Below are positions 5,941 to 52,032 of a stretch of 64,000 nt of DNA, piece by piece. The stretch comes from Candidatus Woesebacteria bacterium. GTDB taxonomy: Bacteria; Patescibacteriota; Microgenomatia; UBA1400; UBA1396. A program made the position numbers and the translations under genes. The notes beneath the pieces are model-generated. The model searched no databases and was not told the origin of the DNA. It saw only the letters and a list, made by a program, of their open reading frames with translations. Position 1 is the stretch's first letter. Each line of letters begins with the position of its first letter. The stretch spans positions 32,606 through 96,605 of the forward strand of contig CAVVNJ010000002.1 in NCBI GenBank assembly GCA_963749595.1, in the 5' to 3' direction.

Positions 5941-5974
5941 CATTTTAAGTGTTAGTGAGATAGACATAATAATT

Positions 5975-10784: not shown

Positions 10785-11640
10785 CGACTAAAACCTTTCG
10801 CTGCAGATCTGACCAAAAAAGATCGTAGTCGGCAGTCACGCTCACTTGGGTCGACGAACCATGGTCGGTTTCAATGAATTCGCCAATCGAGGACAACTCA
10901 ATATATTTTGCCTCAAAATCCACTGTTGGTAAGAAAAGGGTACTAAACGTTAAGGGGTCGTGCATCCGAGAATCGGGAAACATGGTATCAAAAAAACGAT
11001 CAAAATTCTCAATGATGAGACGGTCAAAGAAATCCGAACGATTTTGAAAATGACGGTATAAATCGTGCTGCCGCGTTACGGAAAGCTGAGGTACAAAAGT
11101 GAAGTCACTGAGCACCCAACGCTTTGGGCTCAATTCACCAAAAACCTGTCTGGCCGCGGATAAATCCAGCCTGACATTGTGTTCAGCCACTCCCGGTTTG
11201 CGAAAATGGATGGCGCCACCCATAATTATAGTTTCCATCATGGGCCAAATGTTCGGATAAGCCAACCCCAACTCTGCCCGGTTTGAAAGCGCGCCAATCG
11301 ATAGGTATTTTCCACCTTCCTGGGAGACTTTTTTTAAAATACGTTTCAACTCCGGCGCGGTGACAGCCGGTAGATCAGCCGGTTCAACCAAATCCTCAAG
11401 CAAAAATAGCTTGCTATTGCCCAGATCGCGTCCAGAAAAGACCGGAATGTCACGATCAATTGACTTCAGCCAACGTCGGAGCACTAAGGCCCGATGATTG
11501 GTCTGGAATTCATCGTTGGTTAAAAGGGCTTTAATTTCAATTTCCGGCGATTTGAGGGCATAAACCAGCGCGATTACATCATCAGGATCACCACCAAAAT
11601 CGGTATCAATGATGACGGGAAGCGGCCGGCCGGTATCCAT
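10777..11640 (-). CDS. Nucleoside hydrolase (inosine/uridine-preferring NH family-like)
   Basis: 287 aa. The N-terminal IIDTDFGGDPDDVIAL matches the DxDxxxDD Ca2+/ribose-binding signature of the IU-NH family. Confidence 0.75.
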   Translation of the reverse strand: MDTGRPLPVIIDTDFGGDPDDVIALVYALKSPEIEIKALLTNDEFQTNHRALVLRRWLKSIDRDIPVFSGRDLGNSKLFLLEDLVEPADLPAVTAPELKRILKKVSQEGGKYLSIGALSNRAELGLAYPNIWPMMETIIMGGAIHFRKPGVAEHNVRLDLSAARQVFGELSPKRWVLSDFTFVPQLSVTRQHDLYRHFQNRSDFFDRLIIENFDRFFDTMFPDSRMHDPLTFSTLFLPTVDFEAKYIELSSIGEFIETDHGSSTQVSVTADYDLFWSDLQRKVLVDG

Positions 11641-11664
11641 AACTGGTCCTCTGATTGTAGCAAT

Positions 11665-13635: not shown

Positions 13636-13650
13636 ATTGTTATTGGTTAT

Positions 13651-13660
13651 ACACTAGTGT
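13651..13660. promoter_or_regulatory. 10-bp perfect palindrome ACACTAGTGT in a divergent promoter region
   Basis: Lies 16 nt upstream of the 13635 start codon, in the gap to the divergent 13747 gene. It shares the CACTAGTG core with sites at 28694-28701 and 57265-57274. Confidence 0.4.
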
Positions 13661-13746
13661 TTTTCGAGCAGTAAAGTAGTAATTGTCAGCTTGCAATATA
13701 GATGCTTGTTATCTTTGATATTAATAGGATATACTAGAGGACGTTT

Positions 13747-14604
13747 ATGGGTAAATACGATCGCGAGTTAGAATCGCGAAAATACGATCAACCCAGGGTT
13801 CTTCCCGAGCATCTTCCCGGGCACGATAAGGAATTGACCGCTCTCCAGATACTGACGGGAGAAGCGGACAATATTCTCATCGTTGATCTGGATGATACCC
13901 TCTATGACACCTTTTCGGCACTGACGGAATATATCCCCATGTTCATTCGCCAAGAAGTTGATCCGGAATTCTCTATAAGTTCGTTGGAGTTGCGCGCGGC
14001 AGTTATCGGCGCCCCAGGTGGTCGCTTCGATAATACTGAGGTCCTAAAAAATACTATGGACGCAGCCAATTTGTCGATCGACCAACTAATAAACCACGCG
14101 AATTCTGATCCCCAGCTGCTCAAATTAGCTAAACTTTTTCCGGAAGCCCGAGCCTTAATCCAGGCTTTTGCCACTCGCGGCATACCACTGGTCGGCGCCC
14201 TCACCGCCCGACCGGAAGCGGTAATTCCGGAGACCTACGCCATCTTGCATCAGGATGGCTTTCGTGCCCGGATACCGGGACATGGTTTCGGTCATTACCC
14301 GGATCATAGTCGGCCGATTACCGTCCTTCGTCCGGACGGTGTCACGACCCAGAATCCCGCCGGACCAAAAATTGTATCTTTTGAACGATTGTTGTCACTG
14401 TTACCGCCCCAAACCAGGATCCACTATCCGGAAGATACGGTAAAAACCGCCATCGAAATTCATGCTCGATTCAAGGATCGCGTTACCGTGATCGTGCCGC
14501 TGATCCCGCGAAATCTCAAGGATCGTCAAAAATTGGAGGAACTGGGAATTGTTTGTGGCACCCACGCGGAATTAGTGGCCCGGGTCCAAAATAATCATCG
14601 CTAA
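13747..14604 (+). CDS. HAD-superfamily hydrolase (possible nucleotidase)
   Basis: 285 aa with HAD motif I ILIVDLDDTLYDT. Context is a nucleotide salvage cluster. Substrate unknown. Confidence 0.6.
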   Translation: MGKYDRELESRKYDQPRVLPEHLPGHDKELTALQILTGEADNILIVDLDDTLYDTFSALTEYIPMFIRQEVDPEFSISSLELRAAVIGAPGGRFDNTEVLKNTMDAANLSIDQLINHANSDPQLLKLAKLFPEARALIQAFATRGIPLVGALTARPEAVIPETYAILHQDGFRARIPGHGFGHYPDHSRPITVLRPDGVTTQNPAGPKIVSFERLLSLLPPQTRIHYPEDTVKTAIEIHARFKDRVTVIVPLIPRNLKDRQKLEELGIVCGTHAELVARVQNNHR

Positions 14605-14622
14605 GCAAATTAATTAAGTATC

Positions 14623-14650
14623 TTTACTGCCGCAAGTTTGCTGATATAAT
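14623..14650 (+). promoter_or_regulatory. Candidate sigma70-type promoter for the PfkB kinase/RNR genes
   Basis: TTTACT (14623-14628), 16-nt spacer, then extended -10 TGaTATAAT (TATAAT at 14645-14650). It lies about 40 nt upstream of the ATG at 14693. Confidence 0.4.
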
Positions 14651-14692
14651 TTTCGGTTGGCAGTCAGAAGCAAATAAAATCTCTGGATTTTT

Positions 14693-15760
14693 ATGAGCAA
14701 GGAGCTAATTACACTGGGTCCAGCCCTGGTCGACGTGGTCGCCGACCTGACTCGTCGTCCCCAGGATTATTACGCCATTCTCGATGGCCTCCACGCCGGC
14801 CCCGGTGATTGGGTACCGATTGCCGACGAATACCAGTTGAATCAAATTCTCGGTATTTTGGGTCAACAACTTGCATTTTCCTTGAGTCAAGATTTTTTTG
14901 CTCTCGCTCAGACTCCCCAAATTAGTATTGAGGCTGGTTCCACCGGTTTGGGCATGGTTTCGGCCTTTACTCCTAATCAGCGGCGTCAAACTTCCGTTGT
15001 CACCAGCATCGGCTCGCCTGATGGGCAGCAACCAGACCAAATTTCAACTTTTTTTTCTTCCGCCGTAAAGGACTTAGGCGCCCGTCATGACACCGTTCCG
15101 GTGAGGGGAATTAACCCGATTGGGCTGGTCCTGGCCACTGCCGACTCAACAGATAAGGTCCTCGCTAATTTTGCCGGAGTAGCGCACGAACTGCCCTGGC
15201 TTCCAGAATCGGTCCAGTCGCCGCGCGTGCTACACATCGACGCCTATGAACTGAGAGAGGGGACACTTGCCCAAAGGGCGAACGAACTGATCCGTTCTGG
15301 GACCGCACCAATCGCCTTGGGACTGGGCAACCCACAAATTATTCACGGAAAATTGAAGGCCAAGATTCAGGAGTACGTTAACGATGGCCTGATCACTTAT
15401 CTGATGGGTAATAGTGAAGAATATCGCTTGGCTTTTGATTTGGGCCCAACTGACTTAGAGCCCGCCAAGCTGCCCCAGCTCGGCTTGCAAACCAAAGTCC
15501 CTCATATTTTGATCACCCTCGGCGCCGAAGGAATGGCCGCCTTTGACCGCGGTCAATTTGCGCACGTTGAATCAAAAAAACCAGCCCGAATAGTGAATAC
15601 CTCAGGGGCAGGGGATACAGCGGCGGGAGTTTTCCTATCCGGAATCCTAAAAAATAAACCGCTGGAGCAAATTTTGCGGGAAGCGACTTTTTATGCGGCG
15701 CAAGTTTTGGGCGTACCAGGAAATCGATTACCAGAGGGAAGAGAAACGGAGTGGCGATGA
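14693..15760 (+). CDS. PfkB-family carbohydrate/nucleoside kinase (ribokinase/adenosine-kinase-like)
   Basis: 355 aa with the C-terminal PfkB signature VNTSGAGDTAAGVFLSG. Confidence 0.8.
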   Translation: MSKELITLGPALVDVVADLTRRPQDYYAILDGLHAGPGDWVPIADEYQLNQILGILGQQLAFSLSQDFFALAQTPQISIEAGSTGLGMVSAFTPNQRRQTSVVTSIGSPDGQQPDQISTFFSSAVKDLGARHDTVPVRGINPIGLVLATADSTDKVLANFAGVAHELPWLPESVQSPRVLHIDAYELREGTLAQRANELIRSGTAPIALGLGNPQIIHGKLKAKIQEYVNDGLITYLMGNSEEYRLAFDLGPTDLEPAKLPQLGLQTKVPHILITLGAEGMAAFDRGQFAHVESKKPARIVNTSGAGDTAAGVFLSGILKNKPLEQILREATFYAAQVLGVPGNRLPEGRETEWR

Positions 15761-17547
15761 AAAAAACAGAAAAGTTAAGGGTTGACGCCAGCTGGTATGA
15801 TCCACACTCAACCGAACCATTGATGCGAAAACGGGGAATTGTCAAAGACAGAGAAACAGTTTCTGATGCGCTAAGCCGCGTGGTTCATGCTCTCTGTAAT
15901 GCTGATACGGAACTGGAAGGCAATGCGGATGAGCAATTCCTTAATGACGTTGCTTATTTCACCGAAAAAGGTATTTTTGTTTATGGCACACCCATTTTAA
16001 CTAATGCCGGGAGGGGTGAAATCACCACTGCCGCATGTACCGTTATTCCACTTCCCGTTCGTCAGGGCTTGTTAGAGATAGATCAGTTTCGAGAACGTTC
16101 TTTAGAGTCGCTAGATGCGGCCATTGGAACTGGGTACGACCTCTCAACTTTGGCAAATCCAACTGTCGAGCTCCATCGGATGAATGAAACGATCAATGAA
16201 ATAAATTTAGCCTTACTGAAAGCCAAAAAACGCCCAGTGGCTTGCATGGCCACCCTCCGAGCCGATCATCCGGATATCTTAAATTTTATCTCTGCAAAAA
16301 ACGATGCTGATTTTACTAATTGGCGATTCAACATTTCTGTCTGGGCTAGCGAGAAATTATTCGAGCAAGCTAAAAGAAATTCACTTTGGAATCTGCATGA
16401 CAATGAAGGTCGCGCTGTCGGTCAAATTCCGGCGCAGGAACTATTACAACGAATTGCGACTAACGCCCATTACTGCGGCGAGCCAGGGCTACTCTTCAAA
16501 GATCGCTACAGTCGCGACAACGCAACGCCACAGTGGGAATACGAGAGCACTGCGCCTTGTGCCGAGGTGGCCATGGCCGCCGGAGAGGTTTGTCAATTTA
16601 GTTACATTAATTTGGCTGAACTTTGGTCCGATTCGGGTCAAGGACCGAGTTTTGATTTTGACCAATTCCAAAAGAGCGTGAGAACCATGACCCGCCTTCT
16701 TGACGCCTCGGTGCAGATCACGATTGATTTTGACCCGCTCCACTCCGCAATAATTGGCGCCAAACGACGGATTGGTGTTGGAGTAACTGGTTTTGCAGGT
16801 TTGCTGCTCCGGCTTGGAATCCCATACGCATCACCTGAAGCGGAAAAACTAGCGTACCAAATCTCCGAAACACTTGCCTTTGCCTCAAAAACAGAATCTG
16901 TTGAGCTGGCAACTCGACGTGGAGTGTTTCCGGCATTTTTGGATAGCCGTTATACGAACAAAAGCTGGCTTCGCCGGCATCGAAAAAAATCGACAGGGAT
17001 CATTTCCAATCGAGACTGGGAACTGCTCTATCAGTCTATTCTGAAATCAGGTATTCGAAATGCGTCCACGACTGCTTTTCCGCCAACCGGAACCAGCAGT
17101 CAAATTGCCAGCACCTCAACCAGTTTTGAACCATATTTTTCCCTCGTCAGCTACAAATATGGCTATCCACAGTCGCCGGACACAGCAGTACCGGTTATTA
17201 CCAGAGATGTTTTGTCGGCCTTACAAGTGGTAGCGAAAAATCCCCAGGAGCTGGCTGAATTAATCCGAACGGTCTATGACCCGACTAACCAACATCAGAT
17301 CTCAAATGTTGATCAGTATCCAACTCTCGCCACCGCGCGCCAGATTTCATTGGATTGGCATCTCCGCATCCAAGCCGCTTTCCAAGCCTTTGCTGACGAA
17401 GCCGGGTCAAAAACGATTAATCTCCCCAATCATGCCCAACCTGAGGATGTTATGGCAGTGCTCTTCCGCGCCTATGAACTTGGCCTCAAGGGAGTAACCG
17501 TTTTCCGCGACAACTGTCTCAACGAACGGACCTGCGCCAAGCGTTAA
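15751..17547 (+). CDS. nrdJ: Ribonucleotide reductase, class II (adenosylcobalamin-dependent)-like
   Basis: 598 aa. LTNAGRGEITTAACTVIPL, APCAEVAM and FPPTGTSSQIASTS resemble RNR large-subunit active-site regions. No R2 subunit or NrdD/G partner is nearby. The start overlaps the PfkB gene stop. Confidence 0.8.
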   Translation: MAMKKTEKLRVDASWYDPHSTEPLMRKRGIVKDRETVSDALSRVVHALCNADTELEGNADEQFLNDVAYFTEKGIFVYGTPILTNAGRGEITTAACTVIPLPVRQGLLEIDQFRERSLESLDAAIGTGYDLSTLANPTVELHRMNETINEINLALLKAKKRPVACMATLRADHPDILNFISAKNDADFTNWRFNISVWASEKLFEQAKRNSLWNLHDNEGRAVGQIPAQELLQRIATNAHYCGEPGLLFKDRYSRDNATPQWEYESTAPCAEVAMAAGEVCQFSYINLAELWSDSGQGPSFDFDQFQKSVRTMTRLLDASVQITIDFDPLHSAIIGAKRRIGVGVTGFAGLLLRLGIPYASPEAEKLAYQISETLAFASKTESVELATRRGVFPAFLDSRYTNKSWLRRHRKKSTGIISNRDWELLYQSILKSGIRNASTTAFPPTGTSSQIASTSTSFEPYFSLVSYKYGYPQSPDTAVPVITRDVLSALQVVAKNPQELAELIRTVYDPTNQHQISNVDQYPTLATARQISLDWHLRIQAAFQAFADEAGSKTINLPNHAQPEDVMAVLFRAYELGLKGVTVFRDNCLNERTCAKR

Positions 17548-18369
17548 TCACCGACGCTGATTTTTTAACGACCGTTCGAAAGCTCGAGCCATCGCCGGAG
17601 CATCATCCACCGGAAAAGCTTTCAGCAATTGGTCGTCCAACTTCTCTCTGGTTTCAAAAAACATCCGGAGCAGGAGATTGAGCAACGTGGCGTCCAGATA
17701 AGTTTCAGCATCTTGAGGGTTTTCCGACTGCATCACCGGAGCGCTGATATTCAACTCCTCAGCCTTGTTGCGCCAAATTTGGGTGAAGCCGTCGACATGA
17801 AGCAATCCGCCGGCCAGGTCGTCGGCAGCGGCGATTTTGACGTGATCAATGCCGGAGTTAACCACCGCGCCCACCGTGCACATCGGGCAGGGTTCAAGAG
17901 TGGTAAATAATTCCCGTTTTGGCTGTCCCGGTTTAGCGGCCCGGGTGATTTCCGGATTTCCGTCTTCGTCCCTACCAAAAACATGAATCTTATGCCCGGC
18001 AATTAATTGCAGGATCGCCACTTTATCACCGTCTTTTCCAGCCAGTAGAAACTCTCGCAGGGCAGCCGTAGCGTTCATTTCGGCATGGCCATGGGGGTTA
18101 CTTTCGGAAAAAATCGTGTTGTGACCCAGGAAAATCATCTCCCGACCACCTTGGCGCACCACAACTGAGGCGGCAATCCCATAGTTGCCGCGTTGCCGCG
18201 CTTCAATGCCGTGCTCGAGAAGAATCAAAAAATATTCCGCCGCGGAATGCGTACCGCGCAGTTTTTCACGGTTGGCGGCAATGTATACCTCGGCCTCGCG
18301 AATCAACTGCTTAGTTTCCCGGGAAAATTCCTGGTGGGGGGAATGTTTTTCTAACTTGCCAGATCTCAT
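17548..18369 (-). CDS. CMP/dCMP-type zinc deaminase family protein (nucleoside/nucleobase deaminase)
   Basis: 273 aa with HAEMNA and PCPMCTVGAV (the H-A-E ... PCxxC zinc site). Substrate not assignable. Confidence 0.8.
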   Translation of the reverse strand: MRSGKLEKHSPHQEFSRETKQLIREAEVYIAANREKLRGTHSAAEYFLILLEHGIEARQRGNYGIAASVVVRQGGREMIFLGHNTIFSESNPHGHAEMNATAALREFLLAGKDGDKVAILQLIAGHKIHVFGRDEDGNPEITRAAKPGQPKRELFTTLEPCPMCTVGAVVNSGIDHVKIAAADDLAGGLLHVDGFTQIWRNKAEELNISAPVMQSENPQDAETYLDATLLNLLLRMFFETREKLDDQLLKAFPVDDAPAMARAFERSLKNQRR

Positions 18370-18459
18370 GATGCCTTTCTTCGTGGCCGAACGAGTTTGA
18401 CTCTGTTAGAGAAGGATTATATCACCTATAATTATCAAAAAGCCATAGACGGAGGCATT

Positions 18460-19251
18460 ATGTTTACCGAACAACAAGCAGCCCAAGTCCTGACTAAACG
18501 GGTCAAAAAGTTTCCTTCTTTTCTGGCCGTTCTCGGCAGCGGCTGGAACAAAGTTCTCTCCTCCGCCAAGATTGAGACTGAAATCCCTTATTCCGAGCTG
18601 TTCGGCGTGGCGGCCACGGTTCCGGGGCACGATGGCAAACTGGTCATCGCCAAAATTAAAGGGCAAAGAGTAGCCGTGATGTCCGGACGCTTTCACACCT
18701 ATGAGGGTTTTTCCGCTCGCGAGGCTACTCTGCCGATTCGGGTTTTTGCCAAAGCCGGAGCTAAACAGCTCATTCTCACCGCTGCCTGTGGCGCACTCAA
18801 TGAAAAATATCGCGTCGGGGATTTCGTCCTCCTTAACGACGTTATCACTCTTTTCCTGGCCTTGGATAATCCGTTAATTGGCCCGCAGTTCCTTGATGTC
18901 TCCGAAGTCTTTGATCCGGAAATGCGTAAAACTGCCCGGGAGGTAATGGTCAAAAATGACCTGCCGCTGAAGGAAGGTTCCTATTGCTATTACCACGGAC
19001 CAAACTACGAGACCCCCGCCGACAAAATGGCCCTTCGTTTTTTGGGCGCCGATGTGGTCGGCATGAGCACGGTCCCGGAAGTATTAATGGCCCGCTGGTT
19101 GAAAATGGAAGTGATGGGTTTGGCGTTTGTGACCAATCTGGCTTTTGTCAAACATGATCACAAGGACGTCATTGCCGCGGCCGAAAAAGCCAGCGCCCAG
19201 ATGACAACCGTGCTTGAGGGATTTTTCAATCAAACAGCGAAAAAAGCTTAA
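18460..19251 (+). CDS. Purine nucleoside phosphorylase (PNP/MTAP family, PunA-type)
   Basis: ORF track start is 18397. I prefer the ATG at 18460, which follows the RBS GGAGG. Motifs are GRFHTYEG, YYHGPNYETPAD and GADVVGMSTVPEV. Confidence 0.85.
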   Translation: MFTEQQAAQVLTKRVKKFPSFLAVLGSGWNKVLSSAKIETEIPYSELFGVAATVPGHDGKLVIAKIKGQRVAVMSGRFHTYEGFSAREATLPIRVFAKAGAKQLILTAACGALNEKYRVGDFVLLNDVITLFLALDNPLIGPQFLDVSEVFDPEMRKTAREVMVKNDLPLKEGSYCYYHGPNYETPADKMALRFLGADVVGMSTVPEVLMARWLKMEVMGLAFVTNLAFVKHDHKDVIAAAEKASAQMTTVLEGFFNQTAKKA

Positions 19252-20778
19252 TTATTCCCACTCCATCGTAGCCGGTGGTTTAGTGGTGATATCGTAAACG
19301 ACCCGCGAAATATTGGGTACTTCATTGACAATACGCGATGAAATTTCCTGAAGAACCTCATAAGGAAGATGAGCCCAACCGCATGTCATTTCATCATTGG
19401 AAGTGGTAATGCGTAAAGCGACCACCTCGCCAAAAAAGCGCTCATCACCTTTGACTGATGTCGACGACGCTCCAGTCATTACCGGAAAAGAATGTAGCAC
19501 TTTCCCTAGCCAGCCGGATTGAGTGATCACCTCCATCACAATGGCATCGGCTTGGCGCTCGGCGGTGAGGCGCTCCGCCGTCACTTCACCGCGAATTCGG
19601 ATTCCGTAACCAGGACCGGGAAACTTTTGCATCTGGACAAACTCTTCCGTAATGCCCAACATCATGCCCATCGCCCGTACCTCGTCCTTATAAAAATCGC
19701 GCAGCGGTTCCAGTAGCTTCAGAGCCAATTTTTCCGGCAGTCCGCCCACATTGTGGTGGCTCTTAATTTTGTCGGCGTGCTTGGTACCTTTGCTTTCAAT
19801 AACATCAGAGTAAATCGTTCCTTGCAGCAAGAATTTTGCCGCAATGCCATCTTTTTTCAAACGCTTCATTTCTCGTTCAAAAACTTCGATAAAGAAACCA
19901 CCGATAATTTTTCGTTTGGCCTCAGGATCAGTAACGCCCTTTAACCGCTCCAGCATTTCCGCTTCAACATGCACCACACGCGGCTCAACCCCAGCTGCGC
20001 GGAAAATCTTCTGGACATTGGCAAACGTTCCCTCCCGCATCAGACCGTTGTCGACATAGATGGGAATAAATTTTTCGCCGATCGCCCGGGCCGTTAGCAC
20101 GCCGGCGACCGTGGAATCAACGCCGCCGGATACCGCGCCGATAACGTAAGCGTCGCCGACTTTTTCCCGGATTTGTTGCTCCAGGGGTGAAGGATCCAGG
20201 GCATAGGCGGCGGTTTCCAATCCACATAGCTTGACAAAATTCTCGTAAATCTGGGTGCCGTGCTCAGTATGTTGAACTTCCGGATGGAATTGAATGCCGA
20301 AAATATTTTTATCCTGATGCTTGATGAACGCGAAAGGTACAGTCTTGGTTGAACCGATGACCCGATACTCTTTAGGAATGCCGACTACTTCATCGCCGTG
20401 ACTCATCCAGACCGTAAAAGTTTTGGGCAAATCCTGCAACATTTGGGTAGTGGTTTTTTTCAACGTAATCACCGCTGGGCCGTATTCCTTGCGTCCACGA
20501 ATAACCTTGCCACCCAAAAGGTGAGCGATAAGCATCATGCCATAACAAACTCCCAAAATGGGAATATCCAGTTCAAAAATCGATGGGTCAATGGTTGGCG
20601 CCTGATCGGCATAAACCGACATTGGCCCACCAGAAAGTATAATTCCTTGAGGAGATCGGGCATTTATTTCCGCCTGGGCCACTTCCGGCTCCACAATCTT
20701 AAATTCACAACCCAGTTCTTTTAATCGTCGACCAATGTAGTGGGTGTACTGCGAACCAAAGTCGATGATTAAAATCAT
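19252..20778 (-). CDS. guaA: GMP synthase (glutamine-hydrolysing)
   Basis: 508 aa. N-terminal GATase (ILGVCYGM, HPEV), ATP-PPase loop AVSGGVDSTV, and the canonical C-terminus PPATMEWE. Confidence 0.95.
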   Translation of the reverse strand: MILIIDFGSQYTHYIGRRLKELGCEFKIVEPEVAQAEINARSPQGIILSGGPMSVYADQAPTIDPSIFELDIPILGVCYGMMLIAHLLGGKVIRGRKEYGPAVITLKKTTTQMLQDLPKTFTVWMSHGDEVVGIPKEYRVIGSTKTVPFAFIKHQDKNIFGIQFHPEVQHTEHGTQIYENFVKLCGLETAAYALDPSPLEQQIREKVGDAYVIGAVSGGVDSTVAGVLTARAIGEKFIPIYVDNGLMREGTFANVQKIFRAAGVEPRVVHVEAEMLERLKGVTDPEAKRKIIGGFFIEVFEREMKRLKKDGIAAKFLLQGTIYSDVIESKGTKHADKIKSHHNVGGLPEKLALKLLEPLRDFYKDEVRAMGMMLGITEEFVQMQKFPGPGYGIRIRGEVTAERLTAERQADAIVMEVITQSGWLGKVLHSFPVMTGASSTSVKGDERFFGEVVALRITTSNDEMTCGWAHLPYEVLQEISSRIVNEVPNISRVVYDITTKPPATMEWE

Positions 20779-20868
20779 AAAGGTCCTTAGTTAGTTGAGA
20801 AGTGTATAGACATCTATACGGTCTGATGATACTATGGAGAACCGCTACTTGCAAGAAGAAATGCTGTT

Positions 20869-21450
20869 ATGAATATCCTAATTATCTCGGACATTCACGA
20901 GAATTTTCACAATCTTGAAATAATTTTGACCTATGCCAAAAATGAAGGAATTTCTCGGGGATTTGCTCTTGGCGATTTGATTAACCCTGGCATTATGCAC
21001 CAACTTGGCCGCTCAAAAATTAACTTCGATATAGTTCTGGGCAACAATGACGGCGACAAATTTATGCTCGCTGCTAGCGCTGGTAAATATAAGAATCTTC
21101 ATCTCGAAGATCTGTATGAAGAATTGGAAATAGATGAGAAAAAAATCTTTATAACCCATTACGATAAAATCGGCGACTTGGCCGCGAAATCGGGTGATTA
21201 TCAAGCAACTTTCTGTGGTCACAATCATGTTTTTAACTCGGTAGTACTAGCAAACGGCTGCCTGCTAGCTAACCCGGGAGAGGTATCTGGCCACATGTTT
21301 GGCAAGCCAACTTTCGGTGTGTGGGACAGCATAACGAATAGGTTCAAAGTGATTCAAATTGCTGGAGCATGGGTGGATGTCAAAAGATTTAAGCGTGATA
21401 ACCAGCCTGTTCTCAATGAAGTTTCCTTTACGGAAATTGCTTCCGAATAA
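20869..21450 (+). CDS. Metallophosphoesterase (YfcE/MJ0936 family)
   Basis: 193 aa with MPE motifs SDIHEN, LGDL, GNNDGD and CGHNH. Confidence 0.8.
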   Translation: MNILIISDIHENFHNLEIILTYAKNEGISRGFALGDLINPGIMHQLGRSKINFDIVLGNNDGDKFMLAASAGKYKNLHLEDLYEELEIDEKKIFITHYDKIGDLAAKSGDYQATFCGHNHVFNSVVLANGCLLANPGEVSGHMFGKPTFGVWDSITNRFKVIQIAGAWVDVKRFKRDNQPVLNEVSFTEIASE

Positions 21451-22711
21451 GCTGAGAAAATTCCAATTGAAACTGCTTTCTAGCCAGCATCTCGTTTTCG
21501 CTAAATACTCCAGAGGAGCGCTTAAGTTTAGTGGTAACGCCCTGCAACAACTCAACTCCTGCTCCCCCCAAATCGGAAAATAATTGTGGACGGATAATCA
21601 TCTGCACGGAACCACCTATCTCAAAAAAGGCAGTGCTATAGCATAAACCTGCCAAAGGATAAACGTGAATGGCTACGTCCCGAAAATTAGAATCCCGAAG
21701 TAGATGTGAATTTCGGCTCAACAGACTTGGCTTAAGATTTTGCAAAAAATTTAATAGGGTTTCTAGCGACTCTGGTTCAATCCATTTTAGATTTGAGAGT
21801 CGACTTCTAAGAAACTGAGATTGATGATCATCGGTTGATTCTTGAATACTGGGTCGCTGCCACATTCCTGACTGGCCATCTGTGCAAGCTGCCATCAGGG
21901 ACTCGTGAACCTGAACAAGTGCTGAATGAATCGCGATAAAGTCGGCATCAAATGCGTCAGTAAGCAGAGTATCCCAACCCTGAGCTAAAGTAAAACTCAA
22001 GAATGGTGACTCATCGTCCGCAAAAGGACGTACCATTTTCAGCTTATAGAGAGGCGCTCCATGACGAATAAAATCATATGCCAGAATTGACCCAACCACC
22101 GTGGACTCATCGATAAGACGCCGACGACGCAACGGTGATAATTCGGAAAGCTGTCTTGCCCCGCTCCGTACCACTGCCATTTCTTCAATTGATCTTCCAA
22201 TAAAATGAGCGTGAAAACGTTTTTCGCACTGCCCGCTTTCCCGATCAAAAGTTTCCGGATCATAGCTAAAGGCAATATAGGGGTACAAATCATGTGTCTT
22301 AGCATATTGGGGGAAGTTATTAGCAATAGTAAAAAAAACTGCTCTAGTTTTTCGATCGTGTTCGGATAAAGCAGACTTGGTCACTTTTCCGGCCGACATG
22401 ACCATCAGCTCATACTGGGAATGGGGAGTTAATTTGTCCATTAAAAACAGAGATTCCTCTGCTTGGGTGGTTATTTCAGCAAGTTTAAAAGGTGCGGAAG
22501 ATTCTAAGAAAGTTAAATGCTCATTCGCCTGAAGATGACCATTGGGGGAAAAGGCCAGAAATTTTTTCACGTCAGCACGACCGTTTATCCTCAGTGAATC
22601 ATAGACCAGAGATCTCAACCTTTTCTCTTCAAGCTTCGGAGGCAATAGAGGAAACTCTCGAGATAATGATTCAAATAAGCTGGCAATTCTTTCCTCTGAT
22701 CGATTTACCAT
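21428..22711 (-). CDS. Hypothetical protein (427 aa), no confident family; weak HIT/GalT-like H-x-H element (RFHAHFIG)
   Basis: Long uninterrupted ORF. Its stop lies 2 nt from the start of the next gene, and its 3' end overlaps the convergent MPE gene by 23 nt. The only motif noticed is KRFHAHFIGRS. Confidence 0.55.
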   Translation of the reverse strand: MVNRSEERIASLFESLSREFPLLPPKLEEKRLRSLVYDSLRINGRADVKKFLAFSPNGHLQANEHLTFLESSAPFKLAEITTQAEESLFLMDKLTPHSQYELMVMSAGKVTKSALSEHDRKTRAVFFTIANNFPQYAKTHDLYPYIAFSYDPETFDRESGQCEKRFHAHFIGRSIEEMAVVRSGARQLSELSPLRRRRLIDESTVVGSILAYDFIRHGAPLYKLKMVRPFADDESPFLSFTLAQGWDTLLTDAFDADFIAIHSALVQVHESLMAACTDGQSGMWQRPSIQESTDDHQSQFLRSRLSNLKWIEPESLETLLNFLQNLKPSLLSRNSHLLRDSNFRDVAIHVYPLAGLCYSTAFFEIGGSVQMIIRPQLFSDLGGAGVELLQGVTTKLKRSSGVFSENEMLARKQFQLEFSQLIRKQFP

Positions 22712-22713
22712 GG

Positions 22714-23355
22714 TTACTTTCTGCTCCGTCGCGGCAGCGAGTAGCCTTCCAAATCAGTTCGTGAATCTTGTCGAAATTCTACCTCGATGAGTTTGGAAAG
22801 TTTCGATTTAACCTCTTCTAAACTTTCTGTATTGTTTATTCGTTCAACTTTAAATTGGCCGCAGGTTTGCTCGACCTGATAGTAGCCCTCCCTAACTTTC
22901 GTGATATATGGCTGCCAATAGCTCGCCCAGCTGTCGGCTGTAACGCCATCTCTTTGCGCCAATCGATCGCGAATGACTGAATCAGGTGCGTCGAGTAAAA
23001 TTATGGTTCCTTCAAGCCAAGACTGGCTGGCAACCAAAATTAAACTTTGCAAAAAGACCTCGTTGCTCATAGCCCAAGAGTAGGCTAAAGCATCAAATAC
23101 TCCACGATCCATTATGGTTGATCGACCGTCTTCCCTGGCGATTTTAGTTTTTAAAGCGTGCTGATTAATCGCCCATTCCTGAGCCCGAATTCGACTTGCT
23201 TCGTCTCTTTCTCCGCGCTCATTAACGAATTGCGGAAATGGTTCTAGAAATTCAGGCAGAAATAAGTATTTTTGACCAAAGATCGACCCTAGATAATTCA
23301 GCATCGTACTCTTTCCTGTGGTCGGCAAACCGGATAAATACACAACTTTTTGCAT
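22714..23355 (-). CDS. P-loop nucleoside/nucleotide kinase-like protein (dNK/AAA_17-like)
   Basis: 213 aa with Walker A GLPTTGKST, DRGVFD and LLDAPDSVIRDRLAQR (lid-like). Confidence 0.6.
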   Translation of the reverse strand: MQKVVYLSGLPTTGKSTMLNYLGSIFGQKYLFLPEFLEPFPQFVNERGERDEASRIRAQEWAINQHALKTKIAREDGRSTIMDRGVFDALAYSWAMSNEVFLQSLILVASQSWLEGTIILLDAPDSVIRDRLAQRDGVTADSWASYWQPYITKVREGYYQVEQTCGQFKVERINNTESLEEVKSKLSKLIEVEFRQDSRTDLEGYSLPRRSRK

Positions 23356-23360
23356 TCAAA

Positions 23361-24272
23361 TCACCTCAAAATTCCTCTAACTCGAGCGGTTAGGTAATCC
23401 CAATTATCGGCCAATTCAGGCGTAGACGTACCAAAGATCATTTGGAAGACCCTGTTTCCACCGCCCACCAAAGCCGTTCGGAAAGCTGAGTATAATATTC
23501 TATCAATTGTTGGATCTGACAGGCTCTTCCCGTTTATGGTTGAGATAGCTCCTAGTCTGATTAGGACCGGAAGTGCGAGACCGCCACCAATCTTCAATAG
23601 TGAAGAGGCATATTCCAAATCGAAAGCATGATCCTGATATTTGTCAGCAACTGCCAGATACTCGCCGAAACCGCTTGGGGTGGATAATACTTCTATGACC
23701 GACGGATGAAGCCCAACCACCATTCCTCTCCGACTAACAAAGGATCTTTTATCATTAGATAACACCGCCGCAGAATTAACAAAGTAATACCAATCAGATC
23801 CACTATAACGGGCCTGTTGTCCTAGTGCTAATAAATTTTCCCTAATTTCTTCAAAATTTCTCGGCTTGGCCAACGGCCCACAGCAAGGTATATTAGTTTG
23901 GCTATCAATTCCCAAGCACCACACATCATCTGATTTAATGTTCAAATTTTTCTGCAACGCAATCTCGTCTGGATTTGAAAATTGATTTTCCTCACCAGTC
24001 GGGGCTTGAAAACTTATGTCCAGGTTTGATCCAGAAGCGTTATTGAGATATAACAAGAATTTTTTTCTTAAATAGCTGCCGGTTGAAACCTTTATTTTCT
24101 GAAAGATTACCGATTCGTTACCGAGTGAAAGGTAAATCCTAAATTGGATTTTTCCTTGATCAGAAAACTCCGCGTAACCTTCAAAGCCAGAATCTAAAAC
24201 TTGTTGCATTTCAGGCAGAACGACAATATATTCCGGATTAACAATCTGTCCCTCTTTATTATTTATAACCAT
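23361..24272 (-). CDS. Hypothetical protein (303 aa), no recognisable domain
   Basis: Uninterrupted ORF with its own candidate promoter upstream, followed 5 nt later by the P-loop kinase gene. Confidence 0.55.
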   Translation of the reverse strand: MVINNKEGQIVNPEYIVVLPEMQQVLDSGFEGYAEFSDQGKIQFRIYLSLGNESVIFQKIKVSTGSYLRKKFLLYLNNASGSNLDISFQAPTGEENQFSNPDEIALQKNLNIKSDDVWCLGIDSQTNIPCCGPLAKPRNFEEIRENLLALGQQARYSGSDWYYFVNSAAVLSNDKRSFVSRRGMVVGLHPSVIEVLSTPSGFGEYLAVADKYQDHAFDLEYASSLLKIGGGLALPVLIRLGAISTINGKSLSDPTIDRILYSAFRTALVGGGNRVFQMIFGTSTPELADNWDYLTARVRGILR

Positions 24273-24299
24273 AAATTACTCTGGCAAATTATCGCCAGC

Positions 24300-24328
24300 A
24301 TAATGTCACAACTTATGGGCTTTGTCAA
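24300..24328 (-). promoter_or_regulatory. Candidate sigma70-type promoter for the 23361..24272 operon
   Basis: On the minus strand: perfect TTGACA (24323-24328), 17-nt spacer, CATTAT (24300-24305). A short hairpin, ctggcaaattatcgccag, lies in the predicted leader. Confidence 0.4.
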
Positions 24329-24350
24329 TACAATTTATACGAGAATAAAA

Positions 24351-24971
24351 TTAGGATGTTAAAAGGAAGTTTTCAACTACTGCCCCAATCTGTTGAGCAG
24401 GAAGAGCCTCGGCTTGAATTTCCAAGCAGCGTGTTCCTTGACGGCGCAAGCGCTCCACCAGGGCAGCGATTGAACTGGAAATACCATCGAGGTACTCGGC
24501 TGAATGATATTTAATTTCAAACTCCCGGCCCCGCTTCTCAATCCTTTGACGCAAAAAATCGACTGGACCGTTCAGAAAGACCACCAACTCCGGCGCGGGA
24601 ATTTCCTCGGTTAAATAAGAAAACAGACGTTCGTAAAGTTCCCATTCGTCCGCGGTCATATAACCTTGACTAAGCCGGGAATGTGCGTAGACATAACTCA
24701 TCAACAAACCACTATCAACAACTAAGGGTTGCGGGGAGGGGAGACTCAAGGCTTGCCGCATGAGCAAAAGCCTCTCCAGCAAGAACCAGGTGTCGCTGGT
24801 GAACGACCAACGTTGACGGTCCTTTAGTGCTTCGGGGAAAAAGGGATTCGTTTCAAAAAAACGATCGGCCGGCACCAACTCTCCCTGTAATTTATCGGCC
24901 AACGCTTTGGCCAAAGTGCTTTTACCAGTGGCCACGTTACCAATTACGACAATGTGGGAACGATTGATCAT
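24351..24971 (-). CDS. Deoxynucleoside kinase
   Basis: 206 aa with P-loop VVIGNVATGKSTLAKALA, VVDSGLLMSYVYA, and LVVFLNGPVDFLRQRIEKRGREFE (the dNK lid R-x-x-x-R-G-R). Confidence 0.8.
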   Translation of the reverse strand: MINRSHIVVIGNVATGKSTLAKALADKLQGELVPADRFFETNPFFPEALKDRQRWSFTSDTWFLLERLLLMRQALSLPSPQPLVVDSGLLMSYVYAHSRLSQGYMTADEWELYERLFSYLTEEIPAPELVVFLNGPVDFLRQRIEKRGREFEIKYHSAEYLDGISSSIAALVERLRRQGTRCLEIQAEALPAQQIGAVVENFLLTS

Positions 24972-25569
24972 GCCAGGATTAACTTTCCTTCCGGCGTTAC
25001 TTCCTTAACCCTGATCAGGGAAAAGACATCCACACCGGTTTCACTTTTTATGCGCTGGGTACCATTTTGCCACACCTTGTCAAATAGCACCGCTAAACCA
25101 ACCACTTTAGCCCCAGCGGCCTGCAAAGCCTGGATACCAGCAATGGCGGTTGAACCGTGAGCAACTACGTCGTCGATCACCAAAATGCGCATTCCTGGTT
25201 CAACAAAACCAAAGTGACTAATTACATTTTTTTGACCGGTCGTAAACGATTCGTTAGAAAAAGTCACCACGTTGCTCCAGGCTCCCGGGGGACGGGCAAA
25301 CGTTTAGAGGGCAGGATGTGCTTGGCCCTAATCATTGGCGCCACTACCGAAACCAGACGGGAACCGGCATCGGGCAGACCAACCACGCCATCGATCGGTC
25401 CTTGCTGATGGTAGTGTTCGGCCCAACAACGCGAGGCAAACTCTAAAATATCCGGGTCAATCCGGAGGTTAAATTCTTCCGCCACAATATACCCACTGGC
25501 CGCGTCACGAACATAAACCGTTTCGAGAAATTTTTGTTTTAAAAAGGAAAGCTTGGCATCCTGAGTCAT
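24968..25569 (-). pseudogene. Type I phosphoribosyltransferase (APRT/OPRT-like) interrupted by one frameshift
   Basis: Two adjacent ORFs (25264..25569 and 24968..25270) together form one PRT. The N-part has GVVGLPDAGSRL and the C-part has the PRPP loop ILVIDDVVAHGSTA. The frames join near the C5/G5 run at about 25284-25292. Confidence 0.7.
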
Positions 25570-25617
25570 AATAGGGTCGAGTATAGCCCGCCGAACTGCT
25601 CTAAGCTAGTTGGAATT

Positions 25618-26271
25618 TTGCACATAAGATATAATATAAACATGATTGTCGAGGTGACCGAAGATCTGCAAGCCATTCGCAACCCGATCTTGGTCGATCT
25701 GAATCACGTTTTGGCCAACAACTCGTTACCCCTTGTCCCGAATCCCGAAGCTGCGCAATTCCTCAGCGCGCTTCGCGCCATTGGCACGGTGCTGATCGTT
25801 ACCAGCGCTTCCGATTGGAAATTAGTACACCAATTTTTACAGGATTCCCAACTTTGGACTAAAGATCTGGTTCTGATCACCTCCGGCAATTATCAGTCGA
25901 CCACCGGTGAATATTCTGGTGACTGGAAAAAAGTAAAAGAGCTACAACAACAATATGAAGATCTGGCCCAGAAACATCACCTTCTTACTCCTGAAATAAA
26001 TGATCACCTTGCCAAGTTTCCGGACCTTTTTTGGGGTGGGGCGATCGCCGACAAACGAGTAGCCTTTGCCTTCATGAAACCTCATTTACTACCGATCATC
26101 GATGACGCTGCAATCGCCACGAAGTACAATCCAGGAATGTTGGGCATTCGGGTTAATGCATGGTGTAGTCCAGACGAAATCGCCAAGGGTCGCAAGCCTA
26201 GGACTGACGGTAAAACTTTGGCGGAAGCGGCAAAAATAGTGCGCGATCATTACCAGCCAAAAAATCGATGA
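25618..26271 (+). CDS. HAD-like hydrolase-fold protein (degenerate motif I)
   Basis: 217 aa with ILVDLNHVLA (DxNxV instead of DxDxT), LIVTSASDW (motif II-like) and PIIDDAA (motif IV-like). An alternative start lies at 25642. Confidence 0.45.
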   Translation: MHIRYNINMIVEVTEDLQAIRNPILVDLNHVLANNSLPLVPNPEAAQFLSALRAIGTVLIVTSASDWKLVHQFLQDSQLWTKDLVLITSGNYQSTTGEYSGDWKKVKELQQQYEDLAQKHHLLTPEINDHLAKFPDLFWGGAIADKRVAFAFMKPHLLPIIDDAAIATKYNPGMLGIRVNAWCSPDEIAKGRKPRTDGKTLAEAAKIVRDHYQPKNR

Positions 26272-26277
26272 TCTGGG

Positions 26278-26350
26278 TGGCCGCTGAGGGACTTGAACCC
26301 CCGACCTGCCGGATGTAAACCGGACGCTCTACCAACTGAGCTAAGCGGCC
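26278..26350 (-). tRNA. tRNA-Val(TAC)
   Basis: Reverse complement is GGCCGCTTAGCTCAGTTGGTAGAGCGTCCGGTTTACATCCGGCAGGTCGGGGGTTCAAGTCCCTCAGCGGCCA. Clean cloverleaf with anticodon loop TTTACAT. Confidence 0.92.
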
Positions 26351-26360
26351 AGAAACTAAG

Positions 26361-26441
26361 TGCCCGAGAGAGGACTTGAACCTCCACGGCTTGCGCCATA
26401 CGCACCTCAAGCGTACGTGTATACCATTTCACCACTCGGGC
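26361..26441 (-). tRNA. tRNA-Leu(GAG)
   Basis: Reverse complement is GCCCGAGTGGTGAAATGGTATACACGTACGCTTGAGGTGCGTATGGCGCAAGCCGTGGAGGTTCAAGTCCTCTCTCGGGCA. Class II tRNA with a long variable arm and anticodon loop TTGAGGT. Confidence 0.9.
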
Positions 26442-26528
26442 AATAGTGCCGAAATTATATCATTTCCGACCTAAAAAACCAGCCTGATAACTATGGACAA
26501 AAACCAATTTTTCTGCTAGAAATGTAGC

Positions 26529-26864
26529 ATGTCCCTGACTGTTAATGACCTTCGACTCATTCGGTCGATTGTCCGCGAAGAGATCGATCCGCTTAGGCTC
26601 GATGTCACTGAACTCAAGGGAGACGTTGCTGAACTTAAAAAAGATGTGGCTGTGCTTAAGAGCGACGTGGCTGGTCTCAAGAAGGATGTCGCCGTACTTA
26701 AAACCGATGTTGGTTTACTGAAAAAAGGCCAGAAGAAAATCATTGCCGAAGTGCATTTCATCCGAGAATCATTAAACGCGACGATCGGCCATTTCGACCA
26801 CTGTGAGCTTGATTTGACCAAGAGAATGCTTCGCGTTGAGACCGATCTTGGGTTAGCCAATTAA
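26529..26864 (+). CDS. Coiled-coil protein with six tandem DVxxLKx heptads
   Basis: 111 aa containing DVTELKG DVAELKK DVAVLKS DVAGLKK DVAVLKT DVGLLKK. The antisense ORF (26516..26860) is judged an artefact of the repeat. No RBS seen. Confidence 0.5.
   Translation: MSLTVNDLRLIRSIVREEIDPLRLDVTELKGDVAELKKDVAVLKSDVAGLKKDVAVLKTDVGLLKKGQKKIIAEVHFIRESLNATIGHFDHCELDLTKRMLRVETDLGLAN
26601..26726 (+). repeat. 21-nt tandem repeat x6 (coding heptads)
   Basis: gatgtcactgaactcaaggga and five diverged copies lie in phase with the reading frame. Confidence 0.85.
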
Positions 26865-26866
26865 TG

Positions 26867-26949
26867 TGCCGAGAAGAGGAATTGAACCTCCACGAGATTG
26901 CTCTCATACGCTCCTGAAGCGTACGCGTCTACCATTCCGCCACCCCGGC
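26867..26949 (-). tRNA. tRNA-Leu(CAG)
   Basis: Reverse complement is GCCGGGGTGGCGGAATGGTAGACGCGTACGCTTCAGGAGCGTATGAGAGCAATCTCGTGGAGGTTCAATTCCTCTTCTCGGCA. Class II tRNA with anticodon loop TTCAGGA. Confidence 0.9.
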
Positions 26950-26998
26950 ATGAGCGCCAATTATATCATTTTCCCGAGATTTTCGGTATAACAGACGC

Positions 26999-27511
26999 AT
27001 GACTAATATCATTTTTCGTTACTGCCCGGTCTGCGGCTCGGCTTATCCGGAGAACGTGAATCCCAAAGCTAGAACTTGCGCCGATTGCGGTTTTACGCTT
27101 TATGAAAACCAAAGCGCCACCGTTGGAGCAGTGATAAGACGCGGTCGTGAGGTGCTTCTGATCGAGCGAGGCGTTGATCCTGGTAAAGGAACTTGGGATA
27201 TTCCCGGTGGTTTTGTCGAGCCGGACGAGACGGCCGAACACGCAATTCTGCGCGAACTGGAAGAAGAACTTAGCGTTAAGGGAAAAATTATCCGCCTTTT
27301 GGGGGCTTTTGGTCCTACCTGGTACGAATTTCAGGGTCGGGGCCAGTACAACACCGATCTATTTTTTGAAGTCGAGCCGGAATCAATACATTTTGTAGCC
27401 GGGGATGATGCCGCCGGATTTAGATGGTTTTCTCTGAATAATTTGCCGCCGGAAGATCAATTAAGTTTTCCCTCGATCAGCAAGGTTCTACAACTGATTC
27501 GTCAAAACTGA
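26999..27511 (+). CDS. NUDIX hydrolase with N-terminal zinc ribbon (NudC-like architecture)
   Basis: 170 aa with CPVCGS...CADCGF and the NUDIX box GGFVEPDETAEHAILRELEEELSV. Confidence 0.85.
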   Translation: MTNIIFRYCPVCGSAYPENVNPKARTCADCGFTLYENQSATVGAVIRRGREVLLIERGVDPGKGTWDIPGGFVEPDETAEHAILRELEEELSVKGKIIRLLGAFGPTWYEFQGRGQYNTDLFFEVEPESIHFVAGDDAAGFRWFSLNNLPPEDQLSFPSISKVLQLIRQN

Positions 27512-37522: not shown

Positions 37523-37545
37523 ATCGGTTATAATAACACCGCCGA

Positions 37546-37616: not shown

Positions 37617-37691
37617 CCTTTGAGATTACACTCAAAAAAACATTTGCGTAGTTTTTACATAAAAAGTCATGATTACTATACAATCAAATTT

Positions 37692-52031: not shown

Positions 52032-52032
52032 T

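Follow-up and report, generated by a model that had tools for sequence, protein, structure and literature searches.

Proteins of the HIT superfamily, such as HINT1, follow an element order of beta-beta-beta-alpha-beta-beta and carry the histidine triad on the last strand. The Maf proteins are marked by a signature, S-R-E-K-D-K, which in YhdE corresponds to Ser10, Arg13, Glu33, Lys52, Asp70, and Lys82; the Asp acts as the general base and the Glu as a metal ligand, and the Arg and the two Lys residues bind the triphosphate (PMC3899018). A third point of reference is found in the synthesis of nucleoside analogues: OxsB contracts the deoxyribose ring of dAMP, dADP, or dATP in the synthesis of oxetanocin-A and needs a partner phosphohydrolase, OxsA. 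In the cluster for the oxetane nucleoside albucidin, an OxsB homologue is paired with a ribonucleotide reductase (RNR), and a gene for a thymidylate kinase lies close by (PMC7074753). These systems are the closest described counterparts of a block of four genes (20869-24272) in a stretch of 64,000 nucleotides from Candidatus Woesebacteria (assembly GCA_963749595.1, contig CAVVNJ010000002.1, positions 32,606 to 96,605 of the forward strand), which we analyzed as a whole and call the window; positions are those of the window unless another contig is named. The block encodes a metallophosphoesterase (MPE) and three further proteins, here ORF427, K213, and ORF303. An earlier note on this DNA had treated ORF427 and ORF303 as orphans and had joined them with the kinase K213 in a module acting on a phosphorylated nucleoside-like substrate.

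Bacteria of the candidate phyla radiation (CPR, Patescibacteria) are thought to depend on scavenged nucleotides, so that the cleaning and recycling of imported nucleotides lies at the heart of how they live. Taking the predicted folds and motifs together, we propose, at a probability of roughly 0.55, an accessory role for the block: a module for the processing of nucleotides that are non-canonical or conjugated, whose products would feed the surrounding salvage genes. That the block acts on nucleotides is very probable, and here the substrate named in the earlier note gains support from the predicted classes of all four products: a Maf-fold ORF303, a thymidylate kinase (TMPK)/dNK-like K213, a HIT-like ORF427, and an MJ0936-type MPE.

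ORF303 is a very divergent Maf-fold protein

Scanned as a single sequence, ORF303 finds no match in Pfam (E ≤ 0.1), NCBIfam, PADLOC, or PHROG, and a word-indexed homology search returns only ORF303 itself. Direct comparison identifies a homologue of 301 aa, 39% identical, on a related metagenome contig, L003, and an exhaustive phmmer search of 1.84 billion representatives recovers 51 relatives, mostly 20-30% identical over residues 133-298. An alignment of 45 of these (A2) reveals the Maf-like motifs YAGxSxRR, GGxEP, a lone K, AADTRT, and GKP, and the profile built from it matches the structure of an ITPase at 1.3e-6 and, more weakly, those of YhdE, YceF, ASMTL, and Bacillus subtilis Maf. The Pfam Maf model (PF02545) is matched by 23 of the 45 family members, at best with 9.1e-7. 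Further, when the AlphaFold2 (AF2) model of ORF303 (pLDDT 87.3, pTM 0.87) is compared with the PDB by Foldseek, the top 13 matches are all Maf proteins (E 5.1e-7 to 4.9e-5, probability 1.00, target TM ~0.6), followed by ITPase/HAM1. In the YhdE register given by the A2 profile alignment, six of the six signature residues are kept (Table 1); E95, K108, D123, and K136 are conserved in 45/45 members of the family, R69 in 43/43, and S66 in 39/45. By profile and predicted structure, then, ORF303 is a very divergent protein of the Maf-fold family, and its status as an orphan holds only for single-sequence scans of Pfam and NCBIfam.

The position equivalent to YhdE Arg12, which helps define the substrate class, is Leu68 in ORF303, likewise Leu in its L003 homologue, and Arg or Lys in 40/45 of the family. 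Because Leu replaces the basic residue here, the base preference of ORF303 probably differs from that of its relatives. When metagenomes were scanned with ORF303 together with the L003 homologue, the L003 contig was found again and no other, and neither the phage collection nor the plasmid collection contains a homologue. The roughly 50 representatives of the "long Maf-like" family to which ORF303 belongs share a C-terminal helical extension that carries a W..W motif; their more distant members have a housekeeping or nucleotide-related setting, in which they repeatedly adjoin DUF488 and lie near genes for dNK, a phosphoribosyltransferase (PRTase), and SHMT/FolD (L034 2307-4147; L041 1-1291; L042 2901-4700). 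This family may be the version of Maf particular to their lineage.

A rare family founded by ORF427, with a probable HIT-like fold

ORF427 likewise has no match in Pfam, NCBIfam, PADLOC, or PHROG. Its family comprises 12 clusters among 5.8 billion proteins, a profile search with the family alignment having contributed a single new protein, and none of 11 members matches Pfam, the HIT, GalT, and CwfJ families included. ORF427 is the founder of a new and rare family that carries no database annotation. In the alignment of 11 family sequences (A1), the invariant residues are K93, P96, and H97; D151, T154, D156, and R157; R197 and R198; R411; and those of two motifs, K164-R-F-H167-x-H169 and F378-x-D380-x-G382-G-A-G385. 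The most conserved block of all is EKRFHxH. It contains the element KRFHAHFIGRS that the earlier note had picked out as weakly HIT/GalT-like, and both of its His residues are invariant in the 11 members. An alternative register, R165-x-H167-x-H169, can be drawn for this motif.

In the AF2 model (pLDDT 82.8, pTM 0.86), residues 76-173 form a beta-beta-beta-alpha-beta-beta unit that places H167-A-H169 on the last strand (167-173). This unit is succeeded by a helical region (175-340), a second beta-rich lobe (357-402), and a C-terminal helix; a test for an internal repeat between the N- and C-terminal halves was negative. Nearly all of the high-probability fold matches in the PDB belong to the HIT superfamily: the CwfJ domains of CWF19L2 and Cwf19 (probability 0.57-0.99), a GalT-like uridylyltransferase, and ADP-glucose phosphorylase, and also DUF4931, the Ap4A phosphorylase Rv2613c, and small HIT proteins. 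Against BFVD, the match is to a mycobacteriophage HIT-domain protein (probability 0.98, E 0.1). The model topology and these matches back the early hunch of a HIT/GalT-like H-x-H element, and we consider it likely that ORF427 is HIT-like. Single-sequence scans of it are indeed empty, yet it is no orphan but a member of a rare family with HIT-type fold matches.

The kinase and the metallophosphoesterase

K213 is recognized by the Pfam models AAA_18 (7.3e-7) and AAA_28 (2.3e-6), by phrog_761, a thymidylate kinase (1.1e-13), and by TIGR00041, the dTMP kinase model, at 3.8e-7, with residues 6-185 aligned on 8-195 of 196 (30 bits against a cutoff of 83). The PADLOC model PDC-M51B is matched over its full length at 4.7e-8, and the phage collection holds no homologue. 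From these matches, K213 may be loosely assigned to the TMPK/dNK-like P-loop kinases. MPE is by its sequence a standard calcineurin-like phosphodiesterase of the MJ0936/YfcE type: it matches Pfam Metallophos_2 at 1.9e-23 (83.6 bits against a cutoff of 27), TIGR00040 yfcE at 5.6e-12, and the MJ0936 phosphodiesterase in the PDB at 1.1e-16, and the metal-binding motifs (DxH, GD, GNxD, H, GHxH) are complete, in the form SDIHEN, LGDL, GNND, THYD, and GHNH.

The best fold matches of ORF427, the spliceosomal CWF19L2 and Cwf19 (probability up to 0.99), raise a different possibility, namely, that the module heals nucleic acid ends, K213 being a polynucleotide 5'-kinase, MPE a 2',3'-phosphoesterase, and ORF427 an aprataxin/Drn1-like enzyme for adenylylated or branched ends of RNA or DNA. 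In eukaryotic Drn1/CWF19L1, an MPE domain and CwfJ domains are fused in one protein, an arrangement mirrored by the conserved adjacency of the genes for MPE and ORF427, and a gene for an RNase T-like exonuclease follows the ORF427 homologue in a Kaiserbacteria genome. K213, however, gives its full-length alignments with models of dTMP kinase and not with those of the polynucleotide kinase type, the fold family of ORF303 acts on free nucleoside triphosphates (NTPs), the salvage surroundings contain no ligase, RtcB, or Hen1, and the fold matches of ORF427 have low TM scores. We regard this explanation as highly improbable and favor the processing of free or conjugated nucleotides.

Layout and composition of the block

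ORF303, K213, and ORF427 run in this order on the reverse strand, separated by 5 nt (23356-23360) and 2 nt (22712-22713), and ORF427 and MPE converge with a 23-nt overlap of their 3' ends (21428-21450); the gene sizes and all of these spacings in the earlier note agree with the map of open reading frames. A sigma-70-like promoter candidate that it had also reported is present 27 nt upstream of the ORF303 start (Table 1). This candidate is a consensus match only, at 10/12 positions, and such sites number 19 in the AT-rich region against 8.3 expected. Judging from the spacing, the three genes are probably co-transcribed from it. Between its -10 element and the ORF303 start lies a terminator-like hairpin, CTGGCGATAATTTGCCAG, which could be a weak terminator of the upstream PRTase-dNK transcript or a structure in the 5' untranslated region. 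Transcripts reading through from dNK would carry the entire hairpin, and those from the promoter candidate would probably lack its 5' arm. Together, the two elements could insulate the two transcription units from one another.

Table 1. Genes and sequence elements of the block and of its surroundings. Positions are those of the window; GC, G+C fraction; GC3, G+C fraction at third codon positions.
Feature	Positions	Strand	GC	GC3	Description
MPE	20869-21450	+	0.409	0.418	193 aa, MJ0936/YfcE-type metallophosphoesterase
ORF427	21428-22711	-	0.433	0.381	427 aa, predicted HIT-superfamily (GalT/CwfJ-like) nucleotide-binding enzyme
ORF427 motif	22193-22225	-			E163-K-R-F-H167-A-H169-F-I-G-R173, proposed catalytic His pair; codons checked
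K213	22714-23355	-	0.442	0.421	213 aa, P-loop nucleoside/nucleotide kinase, dTMP-kinase/dNK-like
K213 P-loop	23305-23331	-			G9-T17 (GLPTTGKST), N-terminal
K213 further motifs		-			D83-R84; lid R129/R131/R135
ORF303	23361-24272	-	0.412	0.378	303 aa, very divergent Maf-fold NTP pyrophosphatase-like protein
ORF303 S66	24075-24077	-			Maf signature codon
ORF303 R69	24066-24068	-			Maf signature codon
ORF303 E95	23988-23990	-			Maf signature codon
ORF303 K108	23949-23951	-			Maf signature codon
ORF303 D123	23904-23906	-			Maf signature codon
ORF303 K136	23865-23867	-			Maf signature codon
Hairpin	24281-24298	-			Terminator-like site, 7-bp stem
Promoter candidate	24300-24328	-			Sigma-70-like: TTGACA, 17 nt, CATTAT, extended TG before -10
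GuaA (GMP synthase)	19252-20778	-	0.489	0.515	Block flank, average composition; 55% identical to L003 10769-12286
dNK	24351-24971	-	0.491	0.517	Canonical deoxynucleoside kinase; directly upstream of block, outside AT-rich part, average composition; Pfam dNK 1.6e-23
Second dNK	10149-10784				
IU-nucleoside hydrolase	10777-11640				
NUDIX	26999-27511				

The GC of the window is 0.493, and its 63 non-overlapping open reading frames have a mean GC of 0.494 (standard deviation 0.037) and a mean GC3 of 0.514 (standard deviation 0.058). Among these frames, MPE, ORF427, K213, and ORF303 make up the lowest run of four genes; in 20,000 shufflings of gene order, the value of the block was reached 12 times for GC3 and 122 times for GC. 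The AT-richness noticed by eye in the earlier note is therefore real in both the per-gene values and the permutation test, and the latter rules out an artefact of inspection. The AT-rich unit takes in MPE and stops at the ORF303 start (24272). By composition, and by the joint occurrence described below, the unit thus comprises four genes, rather than three genes that face an MPE.

The same note had read the block as horizontally acquired. Its distinct composition makes this plausible. Flanking and internal repeats of the block are only short and at chance level, no mobile-element genes or integrase were found flanking it, and the salvage neighborhood is shared with L003. The nearest tRNA genes (26274-26949) are 2 kb outside the block, and Rfam reports nothing but tRNAs. 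The composition fits transfer from a low-GC donor and old residence under weaker constraint equally well, the latter being viable because the genes of the block are also the more divergent ones. Other low-GC spots in the window are one at 5000-7000, with its 6-7 kb region (GC 0.426), a gene at 51994-52683 (GC 0.417), and a probably spurious "open reading frame" at 37293-37919 (GC 0.392), which overlaps a tRNA-Gln gene (37546-37618).

A related contig places homologues of the block genes beside an OxsB-like gene

The one related metagenome contig found, L003 (JGI Ga0172374_1000945, 34% GC), has all four block genes; the trio of the earlier note thus recurs there together with MPE. Identity to the window is 65% for MPE, 49% for ORF427, 41% for K213, and 39% for ORF303, and 55% and 66% for the neighboring GuaA and PNP; the L003 GuaA gene (10769-12286) carries Pfam GATase and GMP_synt_C. 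A PRTase is also encoded beside the block genes on L003, but its similarity to the split PRTase of the window is weak and confined to 67 residues (28% identity) in the C-terminal half of the latter. The convergence of ORF427 and MPE is kept, and the four genes are again among the AT-richest (0.26-0.32, against 0.34 for the contig overall).

At 3971-9236 of L003, genes for a deaminase, a HIT protein (CwfJ_C_1-like), the K213 homologue, a B12 radical-SAM enzyme, a NUDIX protein, and the ORF427 homologue overlap or abut one another. The best match of the radical-SAM protein is OxsB (5ul2), at 2.7e-41; it spans 360 residues and takes in the cluster motif CxxxCxxC. The next-best B12 radical-SAM structure scores 3.9e-5. 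This segment may represent a nucleoside-analogue pathway in an uncultivated bacterium of low GC. By extension, the block of the window might be the conserved core or the remnant of such a pathway, one that keeps the processing and immunity enzymes, with the Maf-like, HIT-like, and MPE proteins trimming or detoxifying the analogue for self-resistance. The close packing of the L003 genes, the need of OxsB for a phosphohydrolase, and the pairing of an OxsB homologue with RNR and a nearby thymidylate kinase in the albucidin cluster (PMC7074753) all accord with this idea, as does the RNR gene of the window, 3.3 kb from the block. However, the radical-SAM, NUDIX, and HIT genes of L003 all lack a homologue in the window by tblastn, a single such locus is known, similarity to OxsB does not prove ring contraction, and insertion into L003 and loss from the window genome are both possible orders of events. 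We therefore hold it to be a rather unlikely account of the block, for which we prefer the role in general nucleotide processing.

Distribution and partners of the ORF427 family

Beyond these two contigs, homologues of ORF427 occur at about 20 loci of Streptomyces, Streptosporangiaceae, and Egibacteraceae, and on plasmids: 10 of Streptomyces, one of [Kitasatospora] papulosa, and a conjugative one of Sulfobacillus, on which the homologue and the end of an ATP-grasp gene overlap. In a Kaiserbacteria metagenome-assembled genome, the homologue lies between an APH-fold kinase gene and the RNase T-like gene and is AT-richer than its neighbors (0.43 against 0.49). A third clade (P0009-P0011; L008 2219-4160; JGI 3300071325) is found between a gene for an NMT1/SsuA-type binding protein and those for an ABC transporter permease and ATPase, which suggests that it acts on an imported small molecule. 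Among the actinobacterial loci, 13 of 15 have a FlaR/adenylate kinase (AK)-like small P-loop kinase adjoining the homologue, often with a small gene of the ribbon-helix-helix (RHH)-like or Phd-like type upstream. The usual cassette of Streptomyces plasmids and integrative elements consists of the RHH-like gene, the ORF427 homologue, and the FlaR/AK-like kinase (L005-L007; L012-L030). On the 502-kb plasmid NZ_CP108601.1 of Streptomyces sp. NBC_01176, homologues (L010 and L011) are situated at most ~1.5 kb from both ends; from these mirrored copies, the plasmid is apparently linear, with the homologues presumably in terminal inverted repeats. Viral contigs and the phage collection contain no homologue. 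ORF427 is nearly always beside an ATP-using partner, and the partners come from at least three kinase families, those of CPR and Actinobacteria belonging to different subfamilies.

This distribution invites the suggestion of a mobile conflict system of two genes, ORF427 and a kinase, whether for defence, anti-defence, or addiction, which would make or destroy a nucleotide-derived signal or toxin and whose CPR copy would be domesticated or horizontally acquired. Besides the plasmid-borne homologues, including those presumably in both terminal repeats of the apparently linear plasmid, other homologues lie among WhiB, DUF2637, IS605, and helix-turn-helix genes, with the RHH- or Phd-like gene upstream; the ORF427 gene is AT-richer than its neighbors in three genomes, and its taxonomy is patchy. 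K213 and the L003 radical-SAM protein match the two components of the defence candidate PDC-M51 (PDC-M51B at 4.7e-8 and PDC-M51A at 1.3e-10). On the other hand, ORF427, ORF303, and MPE have no match in PADLOC or PHROG, the phage collections lack homologues, and the kinases of CPR and Actinobacteria differ in subfamily, so that the pair is not one transferable unit. The window block, moreover, is flanked by salvage enzymes, with no recognizable defence genes. The defence function entertained in the earlier note has indirect support only, from the PDC-M51B match of K213, and the corresponding radical-SAM partner occurs in L003 only. For the block as a whole, we judge a conflict system improbable by comparison with nucleotide processing.

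A broader and speculative scheme, which we think unlikely as stated, would unite these contexts: ORF427 would represent an undescribed HIT-like family whose members never act without a partner that uses ATP, be it an ATP-grasp protein or a kinase of the TMPK-like, FlaR/AK-like, or APH-like type, and the two would make or dismantle a special nucleotide derivative. Among CPR relatives, coupling to an OxsB-type radical-SAM enzyme would allow these tiny symbionts to make or resist a ring-modified nucleoside analogue, and on Streptomyces plasmids, the pair would act as a mobile conflict module.

Proposed function of the block

For the accessory module that we favor, a sequence of steps can be suggested. 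ORF303 would cleave the alpha-beta bond of a (d)NTP to yield a (d)NMP and pyrophosphate, and the Leu at its base-selecting position, in place of the Arg or Lys of its family, makes a non-canonical substrate probable. K213 would phosphorylate a nucleoside or a nucleoside monophosphate (NMP). In ORF427, His167/His169 could form a covalent His-NMP intermediate, and the enzyme may hydrolyze, phosphorolyze, or transfer the NMP of a conjugate such as NpnN, NDP-X, an NMP-sulfate, or an NMP-amidate; the many invariant Arg and Lys residues fit a polyphosphate substrate. MPE would remove a phosphodiester or a terminal phosphate. In sum, scavenged nucleotides of unusual or conjugated form would be turned into ordinary NMPs and nucleosides for the flanking PNP, PRTase, GuaA, dNK, and RNR, and aberrant NTPs would be kept out of nucleic acids. 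Besides the enzyme classes, the operon-like packing with its promoter candidate, the recurrence of all four genes on L003, the kinases beside ORF427 homologues, the salvage context, and the settings of the long Maf-like family speak for this proposal.

Several observations weigh against it. The assignment of ORF427 to the HIT fold draws on a model from 11 sequences and on weak Foldseek scores, none of the PDB matches reaching E <0.001 (best 1.8e-3, TM 0.2-0.3). The ORF427 profile finds nothing relevant among PDB sequences, and hhalign comparisons with the L003 HIT protein and with an approximate HINT1 query sequence were not significant, though the HINT1 comparison, which serves as a lead only, placed DKLTPH..LMVMS on HDISPQAPTHFLVIP. 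The third position of the motif is I, T, or N and not the classical H or Q. ORF303 alone stays below every Pfam threshold, that of Maf included. Co-transcription of ORF303, K213, and ORF427 is deduced from spacing only. Outside CPR, the ORF427 family is mainly on Streptomyces plasmids and integrative elements, which is unusual for plain housekeeping, and the intermixing of the L003 genes with an OxsB-like radical-SAM gene points to special chemistry over simple sanitation.

The salvage island around the block

The earlier note's picture of flanking salvage genes proved correct: the block lies in the middle of an unusually large nucleotide-salvage island of ~17 kb (~10.1-27.5 kb; 10149-27511). 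On one side are, in order, a second dNK, an IU-nucleoside hydrolase, two HAD proteins (one of 656 aa), a PfkB kinase, RNR, a deaminase, PNP, and GuaA, and on the other dNK, a frameshifted PRTase, an ORF of 217 aa, three tRNA genes, and a NUDIX gene. An 841-aa double ATP-grasp protein (7620-10145) is encoded at the edge of the island. The xanthine/adenine-type PRTase (24968-25569, reverse strand) is split into two overlapping frames, 25264-25569 and 24968-25270, by a frameshift near a CCCCGGG run at ~25265-25285, and is either a pseudogene or an assembly error; its stop is overlapped by the dNK start by 4 nt. The 217-aa ORF (25618-26271, forward strand) is oriented divergently to the PRTase-dNK operon. 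No model of Pfam or NCBIfam matches it, and its position in the island suggests another unrecognized nucleotide enzyme. Between the tRNA genes, an ORF of 111 aa (26529-26864, forward strand) encodes a repetitive, coiled-coil-like sequence (DVAELKKDVAVLKSDVAGLKKDVAVLKTDV) and is overlapped by a long ORF on the opposite strand.

Significance and comparison with known systems

In annotation terms, two "hypothetical proteins" become testable enzymes with named catalytic residues. The block adds a predicted, lineage-specific long Maf-like pyrophosphatase and a new, probably HIT-like family with few members (some dozen clusters in 5.8 billion proteins, plus ~30 actinobacterial loci), which is prone to horizontal spread and nearly always partnered by a kinase. 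The most valuable leads are the partnership of ORF427 with kinases across phyla and the OxsB-like operon in L003. Since no more than two natural oxetane nucleosides are known (PMC7074753), finding an OxsB homologue within a salvage island, in a bacterium not yet cultivated, gives a concrete starting point for new nucleoside chemistry.

The system PDC-M51 consists of a radical-SAM component (A) and a kinase (B), and is itself an uncharacterized candidate, on which a literature search found no paper. K213 is B-like, and L003 adds the A-like radical-SAM protein; component A is absent from the window (tblastn with the L003 radical-SAM protein), the L003 kinase falls below the PDC-M51B threshold, and the matches are remote.

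With the Maf family (YhdE, YceF, B. subtilis Maf, and ASMTL), ORF303 shares the fold, as judged by Foldseek, and the full signature. It is ~110 residues longer than a typical Maf, with a hairpin domain of ~57 residues at the N terminus that is found only in ORF303 and its L003 homologue, in addition to the C-terminal extension common to the long Maf-like representatives. Its base-recognition residues are Leu68 and Ser124, in contrast to the Arg and Thr of YhdE.

The closest known counterparts of the ORF427 model are in the two-lobed branch of the HIT superfamily, which includes GalT, ADP-glucose phosphorylase, Ap4A phosphorylase, and CwfJ/Cwf19. The likeness extends to the predicted core topology, in which the invariant H-x-H sits on the last strand and strands 2 and 3 are linked by a D-K-x-x-P-H element. 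ORF427 is also built as one chain that includes a second beta-rich lobe, and its gene neighbors are related to nucleotides. ORF427 differs in having no detectable sequence similarity to this branch, in the replacement of the third motif His/Gln, in a helical insert of ~170 residues between the lobes, and in a second lobe with an invariant FxDxGGAG loop; the fold statistics are weak.

Finally, in comparison with the clusters for oxetanocin-A (OxsB and OxsA) and albucidin (albB with the RNR albC), the window has neither an OxsB homologue, as judged by tblastn, nor an HD-domain OxsA, and the phosphohydrolases are of the NUDIX, HIT, Maf-like, and MPE types. The resemblance lies in L003, where the kinase and the ORF427 homologue share an operon with the OxsB homologue and where, as in those clusters, nucleotide phosphohydrolases, here several, accompany it.

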